Virus record (IMG/VR): IMGVR_UViG_3300032292_001230
Span: 1 to 24,411 of that record
Source of the DNA: a virus
Taxonomy: Duplodnaviria > Caudoviricetes
Strand: one strand, 5' to 3'
Length of the DNA: 24,411 nt
A program made the position numbers and the translations under genes. Numbering within the stretch: the stretch's first letter is position 1; each line of letters opens with the position of its first letter. This document shows, piece after piece, positions 4,463-13,010 of the stretch. Under the pieces are notes generated by a model. It was not told where the DNA came from. It worked only from the letters and a program-made list of their open reading frames with translations, and did no database searches.

Positions 4463-5689
4463 TTATTTTTTAACTCCGTATTTACGTTCGTAATTTTTTA
4501 CTGTTTCTGCAACAGCATCAGCTACCGCTTTATCGATAGCATCAGATGCGGGGCGATCTGGAACTGCCTGATTAATCAAGGGAGTAGCGCCATAAACTGA
4601 AGGGGCAAGACGCGGATCAGGCGTGATATTTTCATTCACATAGTTGAGAAAATCTTCAAGAGCGCCATTAGCGATCGCCGCTTCATTCCTTTCAAAAGCG
4701 TCATCGCCCTCAAAAGTAGCTTTATACTTAGCCGCGCTAAGTTTGCCAAGCCCGTTAAGTTCACTTGCGCGATCTTTTAATGCCGAAAATTTGCGGATAT
4801 TTGCGGTCGCTTTATCTTGAGCGTCTTTAATAAGTTGCTGCATTTCAGCAGCATTATAGGTTTTAGACCCTTCAGACATAGATTTCTCCATTATTGTAAT
4901 TGGTACAGTTTCAAGCTCTTCATCAGGCTTAGGGGCATAAATACCCATAAGGTAATCAGAAAAAGCCGTGACGGTTGATTTAATGGACTTATAACGGCTC
5001 TTTGGGAGTTCGTCATCAGTCGCATCAATGATATTGTCCATAGCCCTAGAGAATGCGTAATAACCGCGCTCTCTAGCGTTCATAGACTTCATGTCATCTT
5101 CTGTCCATTCCTTTTGAGCGCGTCTCATTTGCGACTCAAAAGAGAATGCATATTTTTTGATATCCACATCAGGTTCCCCCGAATATATATGTGCTTCTTT
5201 TACCGCACCCCAAGGCACAGCAGATACTTCAAAAATTGTTCCTGTATCTTTTTGCAGAATTATCCCTATGGATAATTCTTTTAATAATTTTGAATGATAT
5301 TTTTCGATCGCTTTTTCATCGCGAATTTCGATACCATCATTAAAAATTGCATATTTGCCAATTGAGTCGCGATCGCTGCGATCGCTATTCTCTGGTAAAT
5401 CCGTTTCAACAATTTCACGCGCCGTAAATTTGCCAGTGACCGAGCCAATACGAGTTTTTTGGCTGTACTCATGATCGGTAAATAATTTTATTTCTTGCGT
5501 GAGGGCATATTCGTTTGAAGTTGCCACAATGCTATCGATTAATTCGCGAGTATAGGTTGTTTTTTGCCCTTCACTGTCAGTTACATCACCTTCAACCAAT
5601 AACAAAGCAGGGCGCGTCAATACACCGCTTTTTGTGAGCGCTGTATTTGCTTCGCGGTAGTAACGGTGGGTTTTAGTTTTTGTCGCCAT
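4463..5689 (-). CDS. Prohead maturation protease fused to a scaffold region
   Basis: FTDHE (His), ELSIGI (Ser) and FEVSAVPWGAV fit herpes/HK97/Mu-type prohead proteases. Charged helical C-terminal half. Confidence 0.75.
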   Translation of the reverse strand: MATKTKTHRYYREANTALTKSGVLTRPALLLVEGDVTDSEGQKTTYTRELIDSIVATSNEYALTQEIKLFTDHEYSQKTRIGSVTGKFTAREIVETDLPENSDRSDRDSIGKYAIFNDGIEIRDEKAIEKYHSKLLKELSIGIILQKDTGTIFEVSAVPWGAVKEAHIYSGEPDVDIKKYAFSFESQMRRAQKEWTEDDMKSMNARERGYYAFSRAMDNIIDATDDELPKSRYKSIKSTVTAFSDYLMGIYAPKPDEELETVPITIMEKSMSEGSKTYNAAEMQQLIKDAQDKATANIRKFSALKDRASELNGLGKLSAAKYKATFEGDDAFERNEAAIANGALEDFLNYVNENITPDPRLAPSVYGATPLINQAVPDRPASDAIDKAVADAVAETVKNYERKYGVKK

Positions 5690-5745
5690 TACGTTAATTT
5701 CTTTACTAAGGCTAGAAAATAAAGCAAGCCTGCATTTTTGGCAAC

Positions 5746-5808
5746 AAAAAGCCCCTGATTAAATTTAATCAGGGTAGTGAGAGCCTAATTAGGTCGGGGC
5801 GCTTTTTT
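5746..5808. repeat. Nested palindromes; possible terminator or operator
   Basis: Perfect 22-bp palindrome CCCTGATTAAATTTAATCAGGG (5753-5774) and 10-bp palindrome CCTAATTAGG (5784-5793), with outer arms AAAAAGCCCC / GGGGCGCTTTTT. Confidence 0.6.
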
Positions 5809-5812
5809 ATTG

Positions 5813-6134
5813 GCTGACCATAGGTAGGCACAAATAAGGCAAGTGCTGACCATAGCCACAACCTATATATATCAACGCTTTTCAGCCATCGCGCCTAGCT
5901 GTCTAGGCTAAAAAGCCGTTTTAAATCCTATACAAAAGCAATACACATAAAATCACTAATAAAAATATGTGCATATATATTACCTGTATGTATGTGTAAT
6001 GTAGGTATTAGATAGACAATATGGCTGTAACCCTTATGCAGTACTGTGGACAGATGTGGTCAGGGGTATGGACAGCAGATTTTACTGAAATAGGCGCAAA
6101 ACCTTACAGCGTATACATCTTAGCGATGGTCAAC
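5813..6134. repeat. Oppositely oriented 9-11-mer repeats flanking an AT-rich core (origin-like)
   Basis: GCTGACCATAG at 5813 and 5845. Reverse-orientation variants TGTGGACAG at 6045, TGTGGTCAG at 6055, TATGGACAGC at 6067 and GATGGTCAAC at 6125. Confidence 0.5.
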
Positions 6135-6174
6135 ACCTTGGCTATCACTAGCCAAAACTGTTTTTGAAAACCTA

Positions 6175-6203
6175 TTGACATTTGTTGTGTTAGGGGATAA
6201 TAT
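6175..6203 (+). promoter_or_regulatory. Sigma70-type promoter TTGACA-N17-TAATAT; probably gives a leaderless mRNA
   Basis: TTGACA at 6175-6180, TAATAT at 6198-6203, ATG at 6211. Confidence 0.75.
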
Positions 6204-6210
6204 AAAAACT

Positions 6211-6582
6211 ATGGATATTGAACTAACCGAGCAGCAAGAAAACGAGTACACCCGCCGTACTGCATTAGTCTATTTTCAGCAGTATGTTGATGGCTCCATG
6301 ATTGGATTTACGGGCGACGAAGATAATTTGCCAAGCGATCGCGAGATAAACAAGCGACTCAAAGCGTACGCCCAAACTTTGACACCTAATCGATTAACTG
6401 GATTCGATAGCGACGGGTGGACTATGAATTTTAAAGAAGTTGTTGAAGTTGAATTTGATTATTACCCACACTTCCCAATGTGGGCGCAATCGGATCTAGA
6501 CGGCGTAAAACCTTACTACCTTCCCAACGGATGCAACGGTGACGGCGCTAACGTAAGCAGCAAAAAACTCAAGAAGGATTAA
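6211..6582 (+). CDS. Hypothetical acidic protein (start revised to ATG 6211)
   Basis: The ORF-track start at 6175 is the TTG of the -35 box. MDIELTEQQ begins at the predicted transcription start. Confidence 0.7.
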   Translation: MDIELTEQQENEYTRRTALVYFQQYVDGSMIGFTGDEDNLPSDREINKRLKAYAQTLTPNRLTGFDSDGWTMNFKEVVEVEFDYYPHFPMWAQSDLDGVKPYYLPNGCNGDGANVSSKKLKKD

Positions 6583-6603
6583 CTCTCGCAAACTAAAACT
6601 GAT

Positions 6604-6885
6604 ATGCCAAAGCCAAACCCTCTAAATCCGATCTGCACTCAATGTGGCAAACACACCACATTTAACTGCACGCTACCATCAGGTGCGAAGCAGTACCGAT
6701 GCCGCCGCCATACCCCTAATTACACCTGTACCGATAGCGATCGCCCAGAGGGTGGGCAATTACTGGGCGATCGCAAGCTCACACAAAAAGAGCTTACTGA
6801 AAGGTGGAAGTTAAACGATCCTGAAGGGTATCGCGCCGCCCAAAAACGCAAACAACAAAAGCGAAAAAAGCTAAAAAATAAATAA
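6604..6885 (+). CDS. Zn-ribbon protein (InsA-N-like CxxC...CxxH) with a basic C-terminal helix; putative DNA-binding regulator
   Basis: CTQC...SGAKQYRCRRH and a K/R-rich tail. Confidence 0.65.
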   Translation: MPKPNPLNPICTQCGKHTTFNCTLPSGAKQYRCRRHTPNYTCTDSDRPEGGQLLGDRKLTQKELTERWKLNDPEGYRAAQKRKQQKRKKLKNK

Positions 6886-7049
6886 TTTAAAATTATATTA
6901 GTGATATTAAAATAATTTGCCGCCCGAAACCCTTGCACCGTATACGTTCTTATAAATATCAGCAAAATAATTTAAAATTATATTTACGATGTTTTACTAA
7001 AATACGCTTTAAAAGCTATACAGCGTATACGTTTAAGCGATTTTTGCTA
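6880..7049. repeat. Degenerate 85-bp tandem duplication upstream of the ncRNA promoter
   Basis: AAATAATTTAAAATTATATT at 6880 and 6965, and CGTATACGTT at 6939 and 7024; both pairs are offset by 85. Confidence 0.75.
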
Positions 7050-7083
7050 AGGGGTTGACATACGCTGTATAGGATGCTATTAT
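7016..7083 (+). promoter_or_regulatory. Strong sigma70 promoter TTGACA-N17-TATTAT (extended -10 TG) with a 13-bp inverted-repeat operator
   Basis: TTGACA at 7055-7060, TG at 7075-7076, TATTAT at 7078-7083. CTATACAGCGTAT (7016-7028) and its reverse complement ATACGCTGTATAG (7060-7072). Confidence 0.85.
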
Positions 7084-7089
7084 TTAGAA

Positions 7090-7357
7090 AGTTAAGAAAT
7101 TAACTGGTGCGAAACCCTAAAACAAAGCGAGGATGACGCTATACAAACCCTGTAGACCCCAGTAAAATCGGTGAGAAACCCTTATACAAACCGAGGATGA
7201 CGGTATATAAACCTCGAATGCGAGAAACCCTGAGAAACAGGATAAACAAAGCGAGGATGACGCTATACAAACCCTGTAGACCCCAGTAAAATCGGTGAGA
7301 AACCCTTATACAAACCGAGGATGACGGTATATAAACCTCGCTAACCGAGAACGGTTA
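7090..7357 (+). ncRNA. Putative ~270-nt repeat-array ncRNA built from tandem small hairpins
   Basis: No ORF in the track. Begins at the predicted TSS with hairpin AGUUAA-GAAA-UUAACU. Four A(G/C)CG-AGGAUGA-CG(C/G)U hairpins at 7126, 7190, 7250 and 7314 show a compensatory G-C/C-G swap. Ends in UAACCG-AGAA-CGGUUA at the ribozyme cut site. Confidence 0.7.
7120..7340 (+). repeat. Exact 97-bp direct repeat x2 (7120-7216 and 7244-7340), each holding two related ~27-bp subunits
   Basis: Read directly; period 124 bp. Subunit consensus CAAA(G/C)CGAGGATGACG(C/G)TATA(C/T)AAACC. Confidence 0.95.
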
Positions 7358-7411
7358 GCCCCTTAGACAGTAACCTCCACGCGGTTAGGGGTGGGTAACG
7401 CTAATACTGTT
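7358..7411 (+). ncRNA. Minimal HDV-like self-cleaving ribozyme (P4 nearly absent)
   Basis: P1 GCCCCU(U) 7358-7364 / (U)AGGGGU 7386-7392 with G1.U wobble. P2 ACAGUA 7367-7372 / UACUGU 7405-7410. P3 ACC/GGU with L3 UCCACGC. P1.1 CC 7377-7378 / GG 7393-7394. Vestigial P4 GUAAC. J4/2 GCUAA with candidate catalytic C7401. Confidence 0.85.
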
Positions 7412-7466
7412 AGGGCAATCACTTCACCGCCCAAATGTCCACACTACAGGCACACACTACACCGCC

Positions 7467-7799
7467 ATGAAATACATCAAAGCGTCACTCGTAATCATCG
7501 CCGCCATCGCCACACTCGCAATCGTAGGCGGCGCGATCGCACTCAAAAAATGGGTAGATCGTTATGTGGCTGTATCTATGCTCACAGTCGCGCCCAAAGC
7601 TAATGCTCAGATCGTGATTAGATCGCAGCGCAAAGCGATCGCTTTAAAAGCGGTGAGCATTACGATTAAAAATGATCGTCCTGATTACGCAGGGATGACA
7701 CTCAGGCAGCTAAAAGATGCTGCTAGAGGCACTGGTATCAAAAACTGGTCGCGACTGACTAAGAGCGTGTTAATTGCGGCTCTCATTGCCACTCACTAA
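7467..7799 (+). CDS. Membrane-anchored protein with a C-terminal Rho_N-like helix-extension-helix domain
   Basis: N-terminal hydrophobic helix SLVIIAAIATLAIVGGAIAL. C-terminal YAGMTLRQLKDAARGTGIKNWSRLTKSVLIAAL fits the Rho N-terminal domain pattern. Confidence 0.75.
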   Translation: MKYIKASLVIIAAIATLAIVGGAIALKKWVDRYVAVSMLTVAPKANAQIVIRSQRKAIALKAVSITIKNDRPDYAGMTLRQLKDAARGTGIKNWSRLTKSVLIAALIATH

Positions 7800-9474
7800 C
7801 CTTACCCAACGCCGCCGCCTGTGACTTAGGATTAGGGGCATACATACTAATCGACTGCAATAGGGCATACTTCACTGCATCTGCCCTATCAGGAGATCTC
7901 CCCAATCGCTTCTTCACTTCTTTTTTAGATTCTATTGAAACCACACCGCCATCGATGGACGATCGGCGAATACTGCAAAGCTCAGCTTTTAATTTTGGAT
8001 CGGGCGGTAACATCAGCGTGGGATTGTACTGCGGATCGAGCGCTTCCATTAACTTCCACGCAAGCATCGCATTCATGTCCCTGAAGCGCAGTAAACCAGT
8101 GCGATCGGTGATTGGCTTACCGTTGCGATCGCAAGCACTAGCGCCGCCATTAATCGCCACTACACTCCATCCCATTTTTTTGCATGAATCATAGGGCGAA
8201 CTGCCAACGCCCACAACATCGATATTAATTTGGGGATTGCCAATCCTGAGATTATGGATAATATCTCGAACCGCGTCCCCATCTTCGACATATTTACCTT
8301 TAGTCAGGTGAATCGGCGCGATCCAATCATTAAAGCGAATAGCGATCGCTGTCTCGTCATCACCGCCTCTCGATGGATCCACGCCCATAGCTGACATATT
8401 GGGGCTTTGATTTTTTGTACGATAAATTGAGAGGGCATTATTAAAATCTAAGCTTTTAGTACCCATGTACGCAATCCATCTGTCTTGCGCTGCCACAATC
8501 CAAGCTGTGGGGATTACTTGGAGATCGGTGGATTCCACAATCCTAATAAAATTACCTTCTCTAAATCGCGTCCTAAGCTCAATGGGTAAAGCTTCTAAAG
8601 TTTTGTCGTACCCCTTAGCCATCAACACAGGATTATCCTCAACCTTACCGCCAATAAACGACCGTGAGCGCCCCTCTAATCGCTTTACCGTGCCATTAGG
8701 TAGCGTGTATTCATGAATCGGTCTAGGAGGCATTTCACCCCGCGCCATGTACTCTTTAACTTCACTTAATGGAGTTCGTGCAATCTCAACGTCTAAATCT
8801 TCTTCCCCGATATATTTACGAACGAACCAAACCAAGCTCCCTTGCTCAGCGCGATCGCCATCGTAATCAGGATCAATAAACGCGCCCCAATAATCTAAAA
8901 CCCATTCACCATCAACAGTCGTAGGCGGGTTGCCAGTTGCCACAATTCGGCATCGCACACTAGGATCAGGGTGACGATTCCAGATATTGATTTTCCTGAA
9001 TTGCATCTCTGAAAATTCTGTAAGTTCATCCCAGCACTTCAAATCGTGAGCTTGTCCTTGATATTTCTGCCAATCCTGTTCGTATTGCACAGAGCCAATT
9101 TGAATAGTATTTGACTCGCTTAATCGCCACAAATGGAGCGATTCGTTATAGCTGTCACGAGCATGAATTGAAACATTACGCGCAAATATTTCACGCGATC
9201 GCTCGATGATTGCTCTACACCGTGGGAACTCGCGCCGCAAAAGCAGTGAATGCTTAGCAAATGCGGCTAAGCCAAGAATTAAATCCGTTTTCCCGCTACC
9301 CGCCGCACCACCATAGAATAATTCATCCGCAGGGTGATGAAATGCAAATTCTTGTGGACTATTTGGGAATGGTTGCCAAATGACAGAATTATTAGTATTT
9401 TCGCGCTTATTCTGTCTCTTTAATTTCGCCTTGTGTTTCGGTGATTTCAGTGGGGTCGGACACTTCGTAACCAT
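7783..9474 (-). CDS. terL: Terminase large subunit
   Basis: Walker A GGAAGSGKT, Walker B LKCWDE, motif III ATGNP, RNase H-like MGVDPSRGGDD and C-terminal SPDRADA. Start codon uncertain. Confidence 0.95.
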   Translation of the reverse strand: MVTKCPTPLKSPKHKAKLKRQNKRENTNNSVIWQPFPNSPQEFAFHHPADELFYGGAAGSGKTDLILGLAAFAKHSLLLRREFPRCRAIIERSREIFARNVSIHARDSYNESLHLWRLSESNTIQIGSVQYEQDWQKYQGQAHDLKCWDELTEFSEMQFRKINIWNRHPDPSVRCRIVATGNPPTTVDGEWVLDYWGAFIDPDYDGDRAEQGSLVWFVRKYIGEEDLDVEIARTPLSEVKEYMARGEMPPRPIHEYTLPNGTVKRLEGRSRSFIGGKVEDNPVLMAKGYDKTLEALPIELRTRFREGNFIRIVESTDLQVIPTAWIVAAQDRWIAYMGTKSLDFNNALSIYRTKNQSPNMSAMGVDPSRGGDDETAIAIRFNDWIAPIHLTKGKYVEDGDAVRDIIHNLRIGNPQINIDVVGVGSSPYDSCKKMGWSVVAINGGASACDRNGKPITDRTGLLRFRDMNAMLAWKLMEALDPQYNPTLMLPPDPKLKAELCSIRRSSIDGGVVSIESKKEVKKRLGRSPDRADAVKYALLQSISMYAPNPKSQAAALGKVSEWQ

Positions 9475-9826
9475 GTGCTGTCACCGTATCAATTGCTTGC
9501 TCTAATTTATCAAATAAGCCCCTTAGTTTTGCCCTGCTGTCGGCTGCTTGTAATGCTGTTTGGTACTTCTTATCATCCAGTGCTTTACGGATGATTTCGC
9601 GTCGTAATTCCATCTCTTCAGCATAAGCTTCTTCTCTCTCAATCGCGCAAACTTCTTTCATTTGCTCACGCGCTCTTTTTATGAGGGTAGTAGTCTGGCG
9701 GCGGTTTATGCCCCATGTTTGAGCAGCAAAAAGCACAATTTTTTCAGTAGAATGACATTGCAAAATAAGCGAATAAACTTTATTTACTCGCTTTTCCATT
9801 TCTGCATTGTCGCTTTTTTGTGCCAT
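9407..9826 (-). CDS. terS: Probable terminase small subunit (HTH)
   Basis: 139-aa helical protein with an HTH-like segment (AAQTWGINRRQTTTLIKRA), directly upstream of terL. Confidence 0.7.
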   Translation of the reverse strand: MAQKSDNAEMEKRVNKVYSLILQCHSTEKIVLFAAQTWGINRRQTTTLIKRAREQMKEVCAIEREEAYAEEMELRREIIRKALDDKKYQTALQAADSRAKLRGLFDKLEQAIDTVTAHGYEVSDPTEITETQGEIKETE

Positions 9827-9827
9827 G

Positions 9828-10646
9828 TTATTTAGTTATAATTCGGTTTTTTTGCGATTCTCTTTTTTGCCTTATATTATTAAATCTTTTGATTTCTTCA
9901 GCAGCGCACAAACATTTATTCATTTGCTGTAACGGATACCACACAATACTATACCGATAACCATCTGAGTTTTTAGTGATAGGCGAAACACCATGAAGTG
10001 TTGTAGCGCCTGAAAATGCAATAAATGTATTATCTGCCATTTCTAATGCAACATCGTACTGGGGTAATATTAAATGACCGCCGCTAGTTTTCTTTTTGAA
10101 GCAGATCATCACGCTCCAAGAATCCTTGAAATTACCAGAATCAAAATGATATTGCAATGGATTATCTTTATTTACAATCCCACTGGTAAACGCACCGCCG
10201 ATTAAAATCCATTCATTAAGAACGGTATCGCTTATATTTTTAACTTGATTTTTGTATTGATTAGGATTATAAGTTTTTAAAATTTCAGAAGCAAATAAAG
10301 CGCCGTTAGAGAAAGAAGTAAAACTTTTAGGCTGATATCTTAATAATCCTGTAGCGCGACAAATATCATTTTGCAGCCTAACCGTATTCCTAGGCGCGAA
10401 TCCAAAGATAACCGATTGAGTTTTCATCCCATCAGTTCTAGCCCCTTTGTCATATTTAGTTGTTAGACAAGCATTTCTAAGATTATTTGTAGAATCATCC
10501 AAAGAGCCATAAACAGCGATTAAATCGCCATTATTGTCTACTAACTTAGTATTTTCTGTAATCAAATTACTGTAATCAGAATCTTTAGGAGTTAGCTTTA
10601 AAAAATTTTTTTTATCCTTTTGGATTTTGACAATAATATTATTCAT
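9828..10646 (-). CDS. TET/JBP-like 2-oxoglutarate Fe(II) dioxygenase (DNA base modification)
   Basis: HFD (HxD) in NPLQYHFDSGN, distal His in LHGVSPI and 2OG-binding Arg in RYSIVWY. Lies between the ParB-like gene and terminase. Confidence 0.8.
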   Translation of the reverse strand: MNNIIVKIQKDKKNFLKLTPKDSDYSNLITENTKLVDNNGDLIAVYGSLDDSTNNLRNACLTTKYDKGARTDGMKTQSVIFGFAPRNTVRLQNDICRATGLLRYQPKSFTSFSNGALFASEILKTYNPNQYKNQVKNISDTVLNEWILIGGAFTSGIVNKDNPLQYHFDSGNFKDSWSVMICFKKKTSGGHLILPQYDVALEMADNTFIAFSGATTLHGVSPITKNSDGYRYSIVWYPLQQMNKCLCAAEEIKRFNNIRQKRESQKNRIITK

Positions 10647-11262
10647 AATTTTCTGCTAAAGCTTTTAAAGCCTCTGCATTATTTTCTACTTTAAATCGAT
10701 TAATTAACAACTCAAAAAAGCCTAAAACAAGATCATGATCTTCGATTGAATAAGTAAGTACAAATTGCCTAACAGAACTATTTAAGTATTGGCTCTCATA
10801 TTCTTTAGGGGTAAAATCTCTTTCGGTATTAGTTAAAGTCTCACTCTCGTTCTCATCCCCTATCAACTCATCATCATCATACATATCGGAAATATCAATC
10901 TCATCCGATATTTCTGCCAATAATTCATAATCAGCATCATAGTTAATTTCAGATATCCGATTGTCTGCAATGCCTAGCCTAACTGCTTTGGGGTGATTAG
11001 CATCTGGAATATCATCACGCACAATAATGACAGGGCGATCGCCTGTAGTATGTACCATGATTGGCTCTGCATCTTCACCAAAGCGATTAGTCGCAACCTC
11101 TAACCGTGCCGATCCTGCGAACGTTTCCCCATTAGCAGCAGTGGTGATTGCACCGATCCAGCCTTCTTTTTCAACGATATTGTTAAGGGTCTCCATACCG
11201 CGCTTTTTGTGGCGGTTTACGTTGCGAGTTTGCTTTTTAAAATCTGATAACTTTTTTGCCAT
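10639..11262 (-). CDS. ParB/Srx N-terminal-domain protein
   Basis: RNVNRH...GWIGAI...FAGSARLE...LGIADNRISE pattern, followed by an acidic linker. Common upstream of phage terS. Confidence 0.75.
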   Translation of the reverse strand: MAKKLSDFKKQTRNVNRHKKRGMETLNNIVEKEGWIGAITTAANGETFAGSARLEVATNRFGEDAEPIMVHTTGDRPVIIVRDDIPDANHPKAVRLGIADNRISEINYDADYELLAEISDEIDISDMYDDDELIGDENESETLTNTERDFTPKEYESQYLNSSVRQFVLTYSIEDHDLVLGFFELLINRFKVENNAEALKALAENYE

Positions 11263-11334
11263 AAGTACCGATAACGAATTTACAGCGATTTTATCATAAG
11301 CAGCTACAATCTATAAAACTTACTGATCGCTCCT

Positions 11335-11637
11335 ATGTCTTATGGACTCGAAAATTATGATCCAAAACATCACTACCGAGCCATTAAATACCAGCGTAAA
11401 GCCGACTTTGATCATTGCTGTGCATATTGTGGCGATCGCCCTCAATTCTTGACTATTGACCATGTAATACCGCGCAGTCAAGAGGGAACAAATGAGCTTA
11501 ACAACCTATTGCCAGCCTGTAAGCCATGCAATGAAAGTAAAGGCTCTAAATCCTTGGCTAATTGGTACACGCACCGTAATTATCGATATACGGCGGCGCG
11601 ATGGGAAAAGATTAAGGCAGTTTTGCAACATAGCTAA
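11335..11637 (+). CDS. HNH endonuclease (Zn-binding, McrA-like)
   Basis: CAYC...TIDHVIPRSQEGTNELNNLLPACKPCNESK. Confidence 0.92.
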   Translation: MSYGLENYDPKHHYRAIKYQRKADFDHCCAYCGDRPQFLTIDHVIPRSQEGTNELNNLLPACKPCNESKGSKSLANWYTHRNYRYTAARWEKIKAVLQHS

Positions 11638-12268
11638 TTAAATCAAGAAGCCTACTGCCTCTTTTTGTAGCAATCACAGCCTCACTAGCAGCATATTCAC
11701 TGATGTATTTAGCTAATTTATCGCTTCGATAGTTGCCAGAATTAATCTCAGTCTTACTAAATCCCATAGCCATAAGCTCTTCATACCTTGTGAGTAAATG
11801 GACAAATGTAGAGAGGTAAATATACAGCGTGTCTAGCTCAAATTGAACTGGGAAGTAATCACGGCTATTGGCTTCTAATGCCCACGGCAATATGTGCTTT
11901 TGCGCTGATTCGGCAATGCAGATTGTAAACGGCGCCGCGGGGGGATTGATAAGCCATTCACGCAATAAAACGCGGGTAGGTAGCTCAGTCACTACTTGCA
12001 AAGTATCTTTTCCCTCGGTAATTGTGTCACCAAATTTAGGATAGGAATTATCGCCATTAAGTAGCCATGACCAGTTACGGGAATAAATAGCGCTGTACTT
12101 GCCCTTGGTTTCATTCCAATAAAAAGCCCTTAACGGGATACACCATGCACAGCGATCGCATAGATGCTTAGAATCAGGACATCTAGCGGCGTTGTGCGAT
12201 GTAAAGGTATCCTTCAAGGCTAATGGCTTATTAGCGTTAGGGGCGGCGCAAAGGTAGCAGTTAGGCAT
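11612..12268 (-). CDS. csf1: Type IV CRISPR-associated Csf1 (Cas8-like large subunit)
   Basis: N-terminal Zn finger CYLC...CDRC and the WLINPPAAPF...IAESAQKH motif; last gene of the operon. Start revised to ATG 12268, overlapping the cysH-like stop by 8 nt. Confidence 0.8.
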   Translation of the reverse strand: MPNCYLCAAPNANKPLALKDTFTSHNAARCPDSKHLCDRCAWCIPLRAFYWNETKGKYSAIYSRNWSWLLNGDNSYPKFGDTITEGKDTLQVVTELPTRVLLREWLINPPAAPFTICIAESAQKHILPWALEANSRDYFPVQFELDTLYIYLSTFVHLLTRYEELMAMGFSKTEINSGNYRSDKLAKYISEYAASEAVIATKRGSRLLDLISYVAKLP

Positions 12269-13010
12269 AATTTTTAACCTCTGGAAATAGCGCTGCAAAT
12301 TCAAAATAAATCTTGGGGTAATTCTTTCTTAGATGTGCCATACGCCCCCAATTAGAAAGCGCTGTATCTATAGGGCATCCATTACGAAAAGTCATACGCC
12401 CCTCAACATCGTAAATCGTGGCATAGGGTAGCTTTTGCCAATCTATGTATTGCCAAATATCTTCGGTTTCCCAAAAGCCAATTGGTGAGCAAATGACGCT
12501 TCCATCTTTTTTCGTGTAAAGCAATCCATTAGATCGCAAATACTCTTTACGACCTCTTGACTCTTGCCTTAGTCCCCATGCGTACCCTTTGACGTTGTGC
12601 ATTTCAGCCCATTCATTCAATGGATAAAGTAAAAGTTCATGGCATTGTTTTTTGTCAAGAGCATTAAATTGTCCGTCAAAACTCATGCCTAATTTGCGGT
12701 AAAGCTGCATCAATCCAAGCGGTGGACATAGCTCTATAATGTTCCATTTGAGTTCATCTCGCAGATAGTAAAGCAACTCTATGCAATCATCCCATTCGGC
12801 TAAATGCCCTTGATTTACCCATAGAAATGGACAATCTGGGAAAACCTCTTTAATTAAATGCGCCATTACTAGCGAGTCTTTACCGCCCGAAATAGAGCCG
12901 TAAACTTGATAGTCGCAAAGTTCTAACCATTCTTTGATTAGAGCGATCGCCTTATCTTTTTTGCGCTGTAACCAAACAGCATTTAATCCACTGCCAAAAG
13001 TTATCGACAT
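12261..13010 (-). CDS. cysH: PAPS-reductase-family (CysH-like) protein, the hallmark accessory gene of type IV-B
   Basis: PP-loop SISGGKDS, WGLRQES and SPIGFWETEDIWQYI. Embedded between csf3 and csf1. Confidence 0.88.
   Translation of the reverse strand: MSITFGSGLNAVWLQRKKDKAIALIKEWLELCDYQVYGSISGGKDSLVMAHLIKEVFPDCPFLWVNQGHLAEWDDCIELLYYLRDELKWNIIELCPPLGLMQLYRKLGMSFDGQFNALDKKQCHELLLYPLNEWAEMHNVKGYAWGLRQESRGRKEYLRSNGLLYTKKDGSVICSPIGFWETEDIWQYIDWQKLPYATIYDVEGRMTFRNGCPIDTALSNWGRMAHLRKNYPKIYFEFAALFPEVKNYA

Follow-up and report, generated by a model that had tools for sequence, protein, structure and literature searches.

A theta-type HDV-like ribozyme behind a repeat RNA in a probable cyanophage: a candidate 3'-end processor of exchangeable RNAs

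What most self-cleaving ribozymes of bacteria and phages do remains largely open, to judge from the part of PMC6765202 available. Theta ribozymes were presented by Kienbeck et al. (2024; PMC10879173) as minimal HDV-like ribozymes of gut Caudoviricetes. In the portions of that paper at hand, cleavage in vitro is reported for four tRNA-linked thetas, 742 of 1281 occurrences are tRNA-linked, 526 are not and carry no assigned function, and the hosts named are Bacteroidota and Bacillota. An earlier note on the DNA studied here took such ribozymes to be known mainly for trimming tRNA 3' ends; tRNA-less ones were already in print. What, then, would a theta-type ribozyme serve in a phage where the RNA before it is not a tRNA?

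The question is raised by a whole virus record of 24,411 nt (the window, at its full length), which encodes terminase, head and tail-fibre-like genes and carries 42 copies of GCGATCGC, which we take to be the cyanobacterial HIP1 octamer. Its terminase is 75% identical to the terminase in a prophage of Phormidium tenue FACHB-1050, an identity that upholds the previous assignment to a cyanobacterial phage. The GTDB family of that strain also contains Pseudanabaena cinerea (G002), and a member of this Pseudanabaena family is the likely host. ARAGORN finds no tRNA in the window and neither a tRNA nor a tmRNA lies upstream of the ribozyme, as the earlier note had observed for tRNAs; what is new is the genomic context, the lack of a tRNA being already known for thetas. 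The ribozyme sits in a plus-strand island between the terminase gene and the next minus-strand gene, with the following features.

6175 to 6203, plus strand: second promoter-like site of the variable island
within 6175 to 6885, plus strand: a pair of small ORFs in this island, each with homologues that in relatives also lie 3' of the ribozyme
7055 to 7083, plus strand: Sigma70-type promoter, TTGACA-17-TATTAT with a TG extension, predicted start near A7090
7090 to 7105, plus strand: 5' hairpin with a GNRA loop at the predicted RNA start (z -2.9)
7122 to 7339, plus strand: repeat RNA with two full 64-nt units (7122 to 7185 and 7246 to 7309) and a partial unit after each
7126 to 7150, 7190 to 7214, 7250 to 7274 and 7314 to 7338, plus strand: module B, a predicted A-rich hairpin/pseudoknot
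7150 to 7169 and 7274 to 7293, plus strand: module C, a predicted hairpin/pseudoknot
7340 to 7359, plus strand: terminal hairpin abutting the predicted cut
7358 to 7411, plus strand: minimal HDV-like (theta-type) ribozyme, from a descriptor match and the alignment of relatives
7467 to 7799, plus strand: 110-aa ORF with a C-terminal Rho_N domain (PF07498, E 1e-5)
7783 to 9474, minus strand: terminase large subunit, convergent with the island and used to find orthologous loci and the host family

The promoter at 7055-7083 has 11 of 12 matches, the best of 8 sites within 5600-8200, and equivalent promoters precede the RNA in loci L001, L042 and L127 (9/12 in L127). An Atlas search with the Rho_N ORF returned nothing beyond Rho_N. 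A 93-aa ORF at 6604-6885 has homologues in G003, in G349 and at four places in G004, and recurs beside these cassettes. A ACAGCGTATAC-like motif occurs at 6098-6119, 6927-6948 and 7012-7033 and, inverted, near 7060-7075 in the promoter spacer; lying beside both island promoters, it is possibly an operator. Elsewhere in the window, minus-strand genes beside the terminase (9407-13010; Tet_JBP oxygenase, ParB-like/methyltransferase, PAPS-reductase-like) suggest DNA modification, three repeats at 45-nt spacing lie at the contig start (1-109), and a bidirectional terminator-like hairpin with weak Rfam matches is found at about 2360-2389 (region 2342-2389).

Fold and conservation of the ribozyme

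The elements of the ribozyme, all on the plus strand and read directly from the sequence, are these.

7358 to 7364 with 7386 to 7392: P1, with a G1.U wobble at the cut-site end
7366 to 7372 with 7405 to 7411: P2
7373 to 7375 with 7383 to 7385: P3
7376 to 7382: L3
7377 to 7378 with 7393 to 7394: P1.1
7395 to 7400: 6-nt loop replacing P4
7401: C7401, first base of J4/2, the predicted catalytic C

Every element of the nested double pseudoknot that the earlier note had put into these 54 nt is found at its place, and the identification of a minimal HDV-like ribozyme is borne out by a structural descriptor, by the alignment of relatives and by the letters of the core; by these sequence criteria the fold is real. 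The fold also agrees with a predicted cut between A7357 and G7358 and with C7401 as the putative catalytic base. The HDV descriptor, which allows one P1 mismatch, finds 7358-7411 as its sole match on both strands of the window and nothing in 1500 dinucleotide shuffles; having been composed with the site already known, it limits chance only roughly. Rfam family RF02682 aligns weakly to 7358-7414, at 24.2 bits (E 1.1) where the cut-off is 44, and related copies also match it weakly, at 24-28 bits.

Certain details of the first reading change. There is indeed no P4 stem, but the theta literature would write the loop as GUAACG and J4/2 as CUAA, where the earlier note had GUAAC and GCUAA. The nearest kin are phage theta ribozymes, with identical letters throughout the P3-L3-L4-J4/2 core, and not the antigenomic HDV ribozyme. 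The U-U opposition at the seventh P1 position is genuine and is kept in all nine distinct relatives, but it ceases to be a blemish once U7364 is bulged, as it probably is. An alternative 5' strand for P1 at 7302-7308 was discarded: it pairs at 7 of 7 positions but more weakly (-7.7 versus -9.9), begins with A and would require a 57-nt J1/2.

Conservation is plain in the alignment. Eleven copies in ten loci (the window, L007, L042 and L126-L132, with two from L127) align without gaps, and both G1 and the predicted catalytic C are invariant in all eleven. Nine rows are distinct, with G1-C in seven and G1.U in two. The standard register pairs 93.6% of cells over these rows; if U7 is bulged and P1 is closed by position 8 instead, every cell is paired (162/162). 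Two-sided changes affect 2 of 19 pairs; column identity is 95%, a shallow divergence that makes the support from covariation modest. The pattern used for the metagenome scan left P1 pairing, the catalytic C and the P2 3' strand unfixed, and all eight of its matches nevertheless carry them. L128 and L130-L132 are near-identical and may represent one population. Seven further loci (L011, L013, L014, L133, L145, L160 and L162) were dropped on inspection as chance pattern matches. The ribozyme pattern is absent from 71 host-family genomes, and blastn gave no match among GenBank phages. In the human CPEB3 ribozyme the seventh nucleotide is extruded, and that ribozyme is slower than the chimpanzee form (10.1101/2022.09.22.508989, as far as available).

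How the ribozyme stands to the published thetas can be followed in the tables of PMC10879173 that were searched. Its L4 and J4/2 are identical to rows in Supplementary Data 1, where the P3-L3-P3 string, a positive control, occurs 861 times. Within supplementary files 2-9, by contrast, a 21-nt string of the window ribozyme has no match, and neither do the words Cyanobacteria and Pseudanabaena. The 5' strands of its P1 and P2 are found only in the tRNA-linked table and, in the rows displayed, within tRNA sequence. P1 of the window has six standard pairs plus a U-U or bulge, and a seven-pair P1 belongs to the authors' final RNArobo descriptor. L087, a tRNA-linked theta with a U-U, is likewise missing from the searched tables, which suggests that the descriptor excludes such cases. 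Reports of HDV-like ribozymes in cyanophages, or of thetas behind repeat RNAs, were not found in the literature covered, from which subscription journals are mostly absent.

The upstream RNA and the exchange of neighbours

Upstream of the ribozyme lie two identical 97-nt copies (7120-7216 and 7244-7340), which bear out the repeat named in the earlier note and which are assembled alike in the likely source sequencing run. The 64-nt unit also occurs in L001, L127, L128, L130 and L131 in varying copy number; L132 retains the 3' end of the repeats, the contig end cutting off the rest, and contigs of runs X2 and X6 omit 64 nt of the RNA. Besides modules B and C the unit contains a third predicted small hairpin/pseudoknot, D. 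When the unit is modelled with three small stems and two loop-to-tail pairings, 98.5% of cells pair over 10 distinct units. Of the 13 pairs, four show two-sided changes, among them a loop-to-tail pair of module B that goes from G-C to A-U; the structure was derived from these same sequences, module C is invariant, and each change is possibly a single event. A loop-tail pairing ACC/GGU in module C was given up because relatives lose it. The repeat region as a whole folds little better than shuffles (z -1.8). Small pseudoknots, counted with a descriptor, number six in the window, seven in L001 and five in each L127 array (each 0/300 shuffles), four in L007 (5/300) and four in L126 (7/300), and their number is not significant in L042 (67/300) or L129 (30/300); with a descriptor fitted to the window and copies that depend on one another, these counts are a lead only.

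Rfam holds no family for the repeat RNA at E<=5 in the window, an exact pattern finds no copy of the repeat in GTDB genomes, and a covariance model finds none in 71 host-family genomes, a set that contains no positive-control genome. No RNA run is among the sequencing runs listed as carrying the sequence. A preQ1-type aptamer was rejected for its short loops and the lack of an Rfam match.

Both ends of the RNA would be marked by hairpins. A7090, the predicted start, is the first base of the 5' hairpin, which is identical in L042, has its loop swapped for another GNRA in L001 and is absent from L127, L128 and L131. At the other end, the last two pairs of the terminal hairpin take G7358 and C7359 and so compete with P1, while its 5' arm could pair as well with 7382-7388, seven nucleotides of P3/P1.

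The earlier note had described the ribozyme as attached to a repeat RNA. So it is in the window, but relatives pair it with other RNAs, and the ribozyme is therefore not tied to the 64-nt repeats. These exchanges of cargo are directly observed. Though the same ribozyme follows 64-nt repeats in the window, L127, L128, L130, L131 and L132, it stands in L042 behind a repeat of 51-nt period, itself placed after the same 5' hairpin, in L007 and L126 behind long non-coding stretches, and in L129 behind a 49-aa ORF and a hairpin, between two ORFs. L127 carries a repeat of 45-nt period between its two ribozymes. Logan contigs of runs X1 and X14 fuse the ribozyme to other upstream sequence, in X14 exactly at 7357. 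Conversely, the same 64-nt repeats end in L001 in a 16-pair terminator-like hairpin with a T run and no ribozyme, although a terminator scan scored that hairpin only for the opposite strand. The long non-coding stretches of L007 (5936-6212, minus strand) and L126 (1-305, plus strand) are poorly alignable and have in common one stem, whose loop reads ACCCGCA and whose paired letters differ. Rfam has no match for the L007 stretch or for the cargo of L126-L134.

The genes downstream are equally seen to change. A 135-aa ORF follows the ribozyme in X2 and X7 in place of the Rho_N ORF, other ORFs follow it in L007, L126-L129 and L131, and L130 has no sense ORF of at least 20 aa starting within 100 nt. 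Six terminase-linked loci were found and five inspected (L008 ends inside the terminase gene and L009 is incomplete), and the slot is filled in them by differing small ORFs and RNAs. Among them only L007 has the ribozyme, only L006 (the same locus as L001) has the repeats, and both are missing from L005 and L010, so these phages can do without the cassette. Nor is it confined to one lineage: G004, a complete 75.5-kb phage, carries the ribozyme and has no detectable homologue of the window terminase. One tRNA of G004 lies about 700 nt off on the other strand; G003, a complete relative, has one ribozyme and no tRNA.

How do these arrangements compare with thetas at large? A core pattern matched 110 IMG/VR loci, and its scan, the metagenome scan and the window together gave 63 distinct contexts of ribozyme plus upstream sequence, contexts with more than one P1 mismatch or fewer than 45 nt of upstream sequence being left out. 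ARAGORN tRNAs abut the ribozyme in 24 of the 63, four end in something T-arm-like (one of them a tmRNA), 27 lie behind something else, and eight form the cyanophage subfamily, none of which has a tRNA within 5 nt of the cut. A stem of at least -5 kcal/mol ending within 3 nt of the cut is predicted in six of the eight subfamily contexts (27% of shuffles) and in 16 of the 27 other tRNA-less thetas (35% of shuffles), a blunt test, given that only 13 of the 24 true tRNA neighbours pass it.

The same scans brought several sightings in their own right. In L041 (1157-1487) a theta ribozyme lies directly 3' of a phage tmRNA gene, by Rfam match, and L098 and L113 have, as judged by eye, tmRNA-like 3' ends before theirs; the main text of PMC10879173 makes no mention of tmRNA. 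L058 has a twister-P5 ribozyme (1193-1251) and, some 230 nt further 3' on the same strand, a theta ribozyme at 1483, and may excise a short RNA at both ends. A second, unrelated theta-type ribozyme at L035:1484 begins with A and has a 13-pair hairpin before it; L035 is a 134-kb phage record with HIP1 sites, a probable cyanophage.

A candidate 3'-end processor and its rivals

What stays constant is a predicted cut at the close of an upstream structure, usually 0-3 nt after a stem, and both neighbours of the ribozyme are exchangeable; for this reason we read the theta-type ribozyme as a portable 3'-end processor that frees structured phage RNAs while transcription continues downstream, an interpretation that we consider probable. 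The strong promoter at 7055-7083 would start a transcript near A7090, transcription would run on into the small gene downstream, and cleavage by the ribozyme between A7357 and G7358 would free a structured repeat RNA of 268 nt (7090-7357) with hairpins at both ends. By the product chemistry of HDV-type cleavage, as given in the available part of PMC6765202, the upstream product would carry a 2',3'-cyclic phosphate and the downstream product would be a 5'-OH mRNA headed by the ribozyme. Transcription, cleavage and the separate fates of the two products are what we infer from this layout. The ribozyme would thus act as a punctuation mark in a variable expression island, substituting for a terminator or a host nuclease, much as tRNA-linked thetas are proposed to process tRNA trailers.

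Cleavage may be slow or gated, since the upstream hairpin captures G1 and C2 with the better score. In the window it is 1.5 kcal/mol ahead of the full P1 (-16.1 versus -14.6, tertiary contacts ignored), whereas in three relatives the order is reversed, P1 being favoured by 0.2-0.8 kcal/mol. Flanking sequence controls the genomic HDV ribozyme, according to the available part of PMC4615214, and that documented control lends itself to another explanation, a conditional switch in which the terminal hairpin or a repeat-bound factor governs P1 and hence both cleavage and downstream expression. In each of the six loci with 64-nt repeats the hairpin takes in G1 and position 2, the two states lie within 1.5 kcal/mol of each other, and the 5' arm can pair with the seven nucleotides of P3/P1 noted above. 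But these six loci are close kin, the overlap is missing with other cargo (L007, L042, L126, L129 and the second L127 copy) and the repeats match no riboswitch family in Rfam, so we regard a switch as quite improbable. Somewhat less improbable, though still unlikely, is that the ribozyme mainly serves the mRNA downstream, trimming its leader and leaving a pseudoknot-capped 5'-OH end that tunes stability or translation, with the upstream RNA incidental. Most copies do lie shortly 5' of a small ORF, the L129 copy is between two ORFs, and processing of polycistrons has been proposed for bacterial and phage ribozymes (PMC6765202, part available). Yet the element after ribozyme 1 of L127 is another repeat RNA and not an ORF, no ORF follows in L130, and the repeat RNA, in which pairing is preserved where letters change, occurs alone in L001. 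A service to the mRNA would also be compatible with 3'-end processing as a second effect.

Last in probability, and only just behind the switch, comes an inactive or neutral remnant moved by recombination within the variable island, with the repeats as DNA-level binding sites. The non-standard seventh P1 position and the RF02682 score below cut-off would suit it, as would the patchy presence of the ribozyme among relatives, and covariation of inverted repeats can arise in DNA sites too. Against this, the catalytic C is retained in all eleven copies, as is every pair once the bulged register is adopted, this conservation spans phages that share no detectable terminase (G004), and the human CPEB3 ribozyme, whose seventh pair is broken, still cleaves, if more slowly (10.1101/2022.09.22.508989, part available); the loop-to-tail G-C to A-U change in module B, moreover, fits RNA folding. 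The preferred reading, a portable 3'-end processor, is made directly testable by the natural swaps: a ribozyme or a terminator after the same RNA, different RNAs before the same ribozyme, and one RNA between two ribozymes. The family also suggests a use for thetas as signposts to unknown phage RNAs: those marked here, none with a match in Rfam, include at least three repeat RNAs and two long ones.

Possible roles of the freed RNA and comparison with known systems

The weakest step of the scheme concerns what the freed repeat RNA would do. It would most likely act in trans as a multivalent decoy that binds a host or phage protein many times; this is our preferred guess and the least supported step, and an anti-defence role for such a decoy is plausible. 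Phage PhiTE is reported to carry pseudo-ToxI decoy repeats. A broader and decidedly tentative idea is a modular cassette of RNA effectors, in which promoter-driven, interchangeable arrays of A-rich pseudoknots would serve as decoys or sponges against host RNA-sensing defence or a regulator, each freed by a theta ribozyme; if true, the arrays would form a class of phage anti-defence RNA not yet described, and thetas would turn out to process the 3' ends of phage non-coding RNAs in general.

Such a decoy would have its closest parallel in the type III antitoxin RNAs (ToxI, CptI, TenpI), which, as far as the available parts of PMC4627078 and PMC12283969 go, the window resembles in layout: a promoter, tandem repeats, predicted H-type pseudoknots, an A-rich loop and a hairpin or terminator closing the array. 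A CptI primer printed in PMC4627078 contains the 7-nt A-rich linker of module B. In contrast to those systems, the window has no toxin gene downstream, its unit of 64 nt comprises three modules, and its second stems are only 2-3 pairs long. First stems and one loop-tail pair of the repeat RNA covary, and module C is invariant. No ToxN/TenpN/CptN-type ribonuclease lies directly downstream, where the Rho_N ORF is found, itself variable or absent in relatives. ToxN was found in none of 301 genomes of the class, and TenpN and CptN each in none of 71 host-family genomes, searches in which the controls were silent too.

Abi_2 genes are present in 15 of the 71 host-family genomes. Their leaders were tried as a model for the repeats and set aside, 11 of 12 loci being parsed with chance-level matches only to the window repeats. 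The Abi_2 (PF07751) genes of L148-L155 and L157 have in common a leader about 60 nt upstream that is conserved, looks structured and stands behind a strong promoter. Rfam gave no match to it at E<=0.5 among the scanned loci, and it is a candidate for an RNA antitoxin or an attenuator.

RNA anti-CRISPRs (Racrs) and viral CRISPR-like mini-arrays are likewise said to be phage non-coding repeat RNAs with their own promoter. The window RNA is also phage-borne, non-coding and behind its own promoter, but it differs in having no similarity to host-family genomes, of which two were searched by BLAST and 71 with the covariance model (the true host strain may differ), and no match to an Rfam CRISPR repeat. 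CRISPR mimicry thus finds no support in the genomes searched.

The ribozyme itself shares topology and catalytic C with RF02682 (HDV-F-prausnitzii) and with HDV/CPEB3-type ribozymes, and differs in having no P4 stem, in scoring below the gathering threshold of 44 and in its occurrence in a phage; human CPEB3 also has a broken seventh P1 pair, its position 7 being extruded (10.1101/2022.09.22.508989, part available). The likeness to theta ribozymes goes much further: a nested double pseudoknot of 54 nt, with short L4 and J1/2 and without P4, in a tailed phage, a predicted cut immediately 3' of a structured RNA, and letters of P3, L3, P1.1, L4 and J4/2 identical to those of thetas in the tables available. 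The tabulated thetas belong to phages of Bacteroidota and Bacillota, whereas the likely host of the window phage is a freshwater cyanobacterium; the subfamily has a conserved U-U or bulge at P1 position 7, and where tRNA-linked thetas have a tRNA as cargo it has a repeat RNA, a long non-coding stretch or a short ORF. Judged by its sequence, then, the window ribozyme is a theta-type element that appears to depart from the type only in its lack of association with a tRNA.
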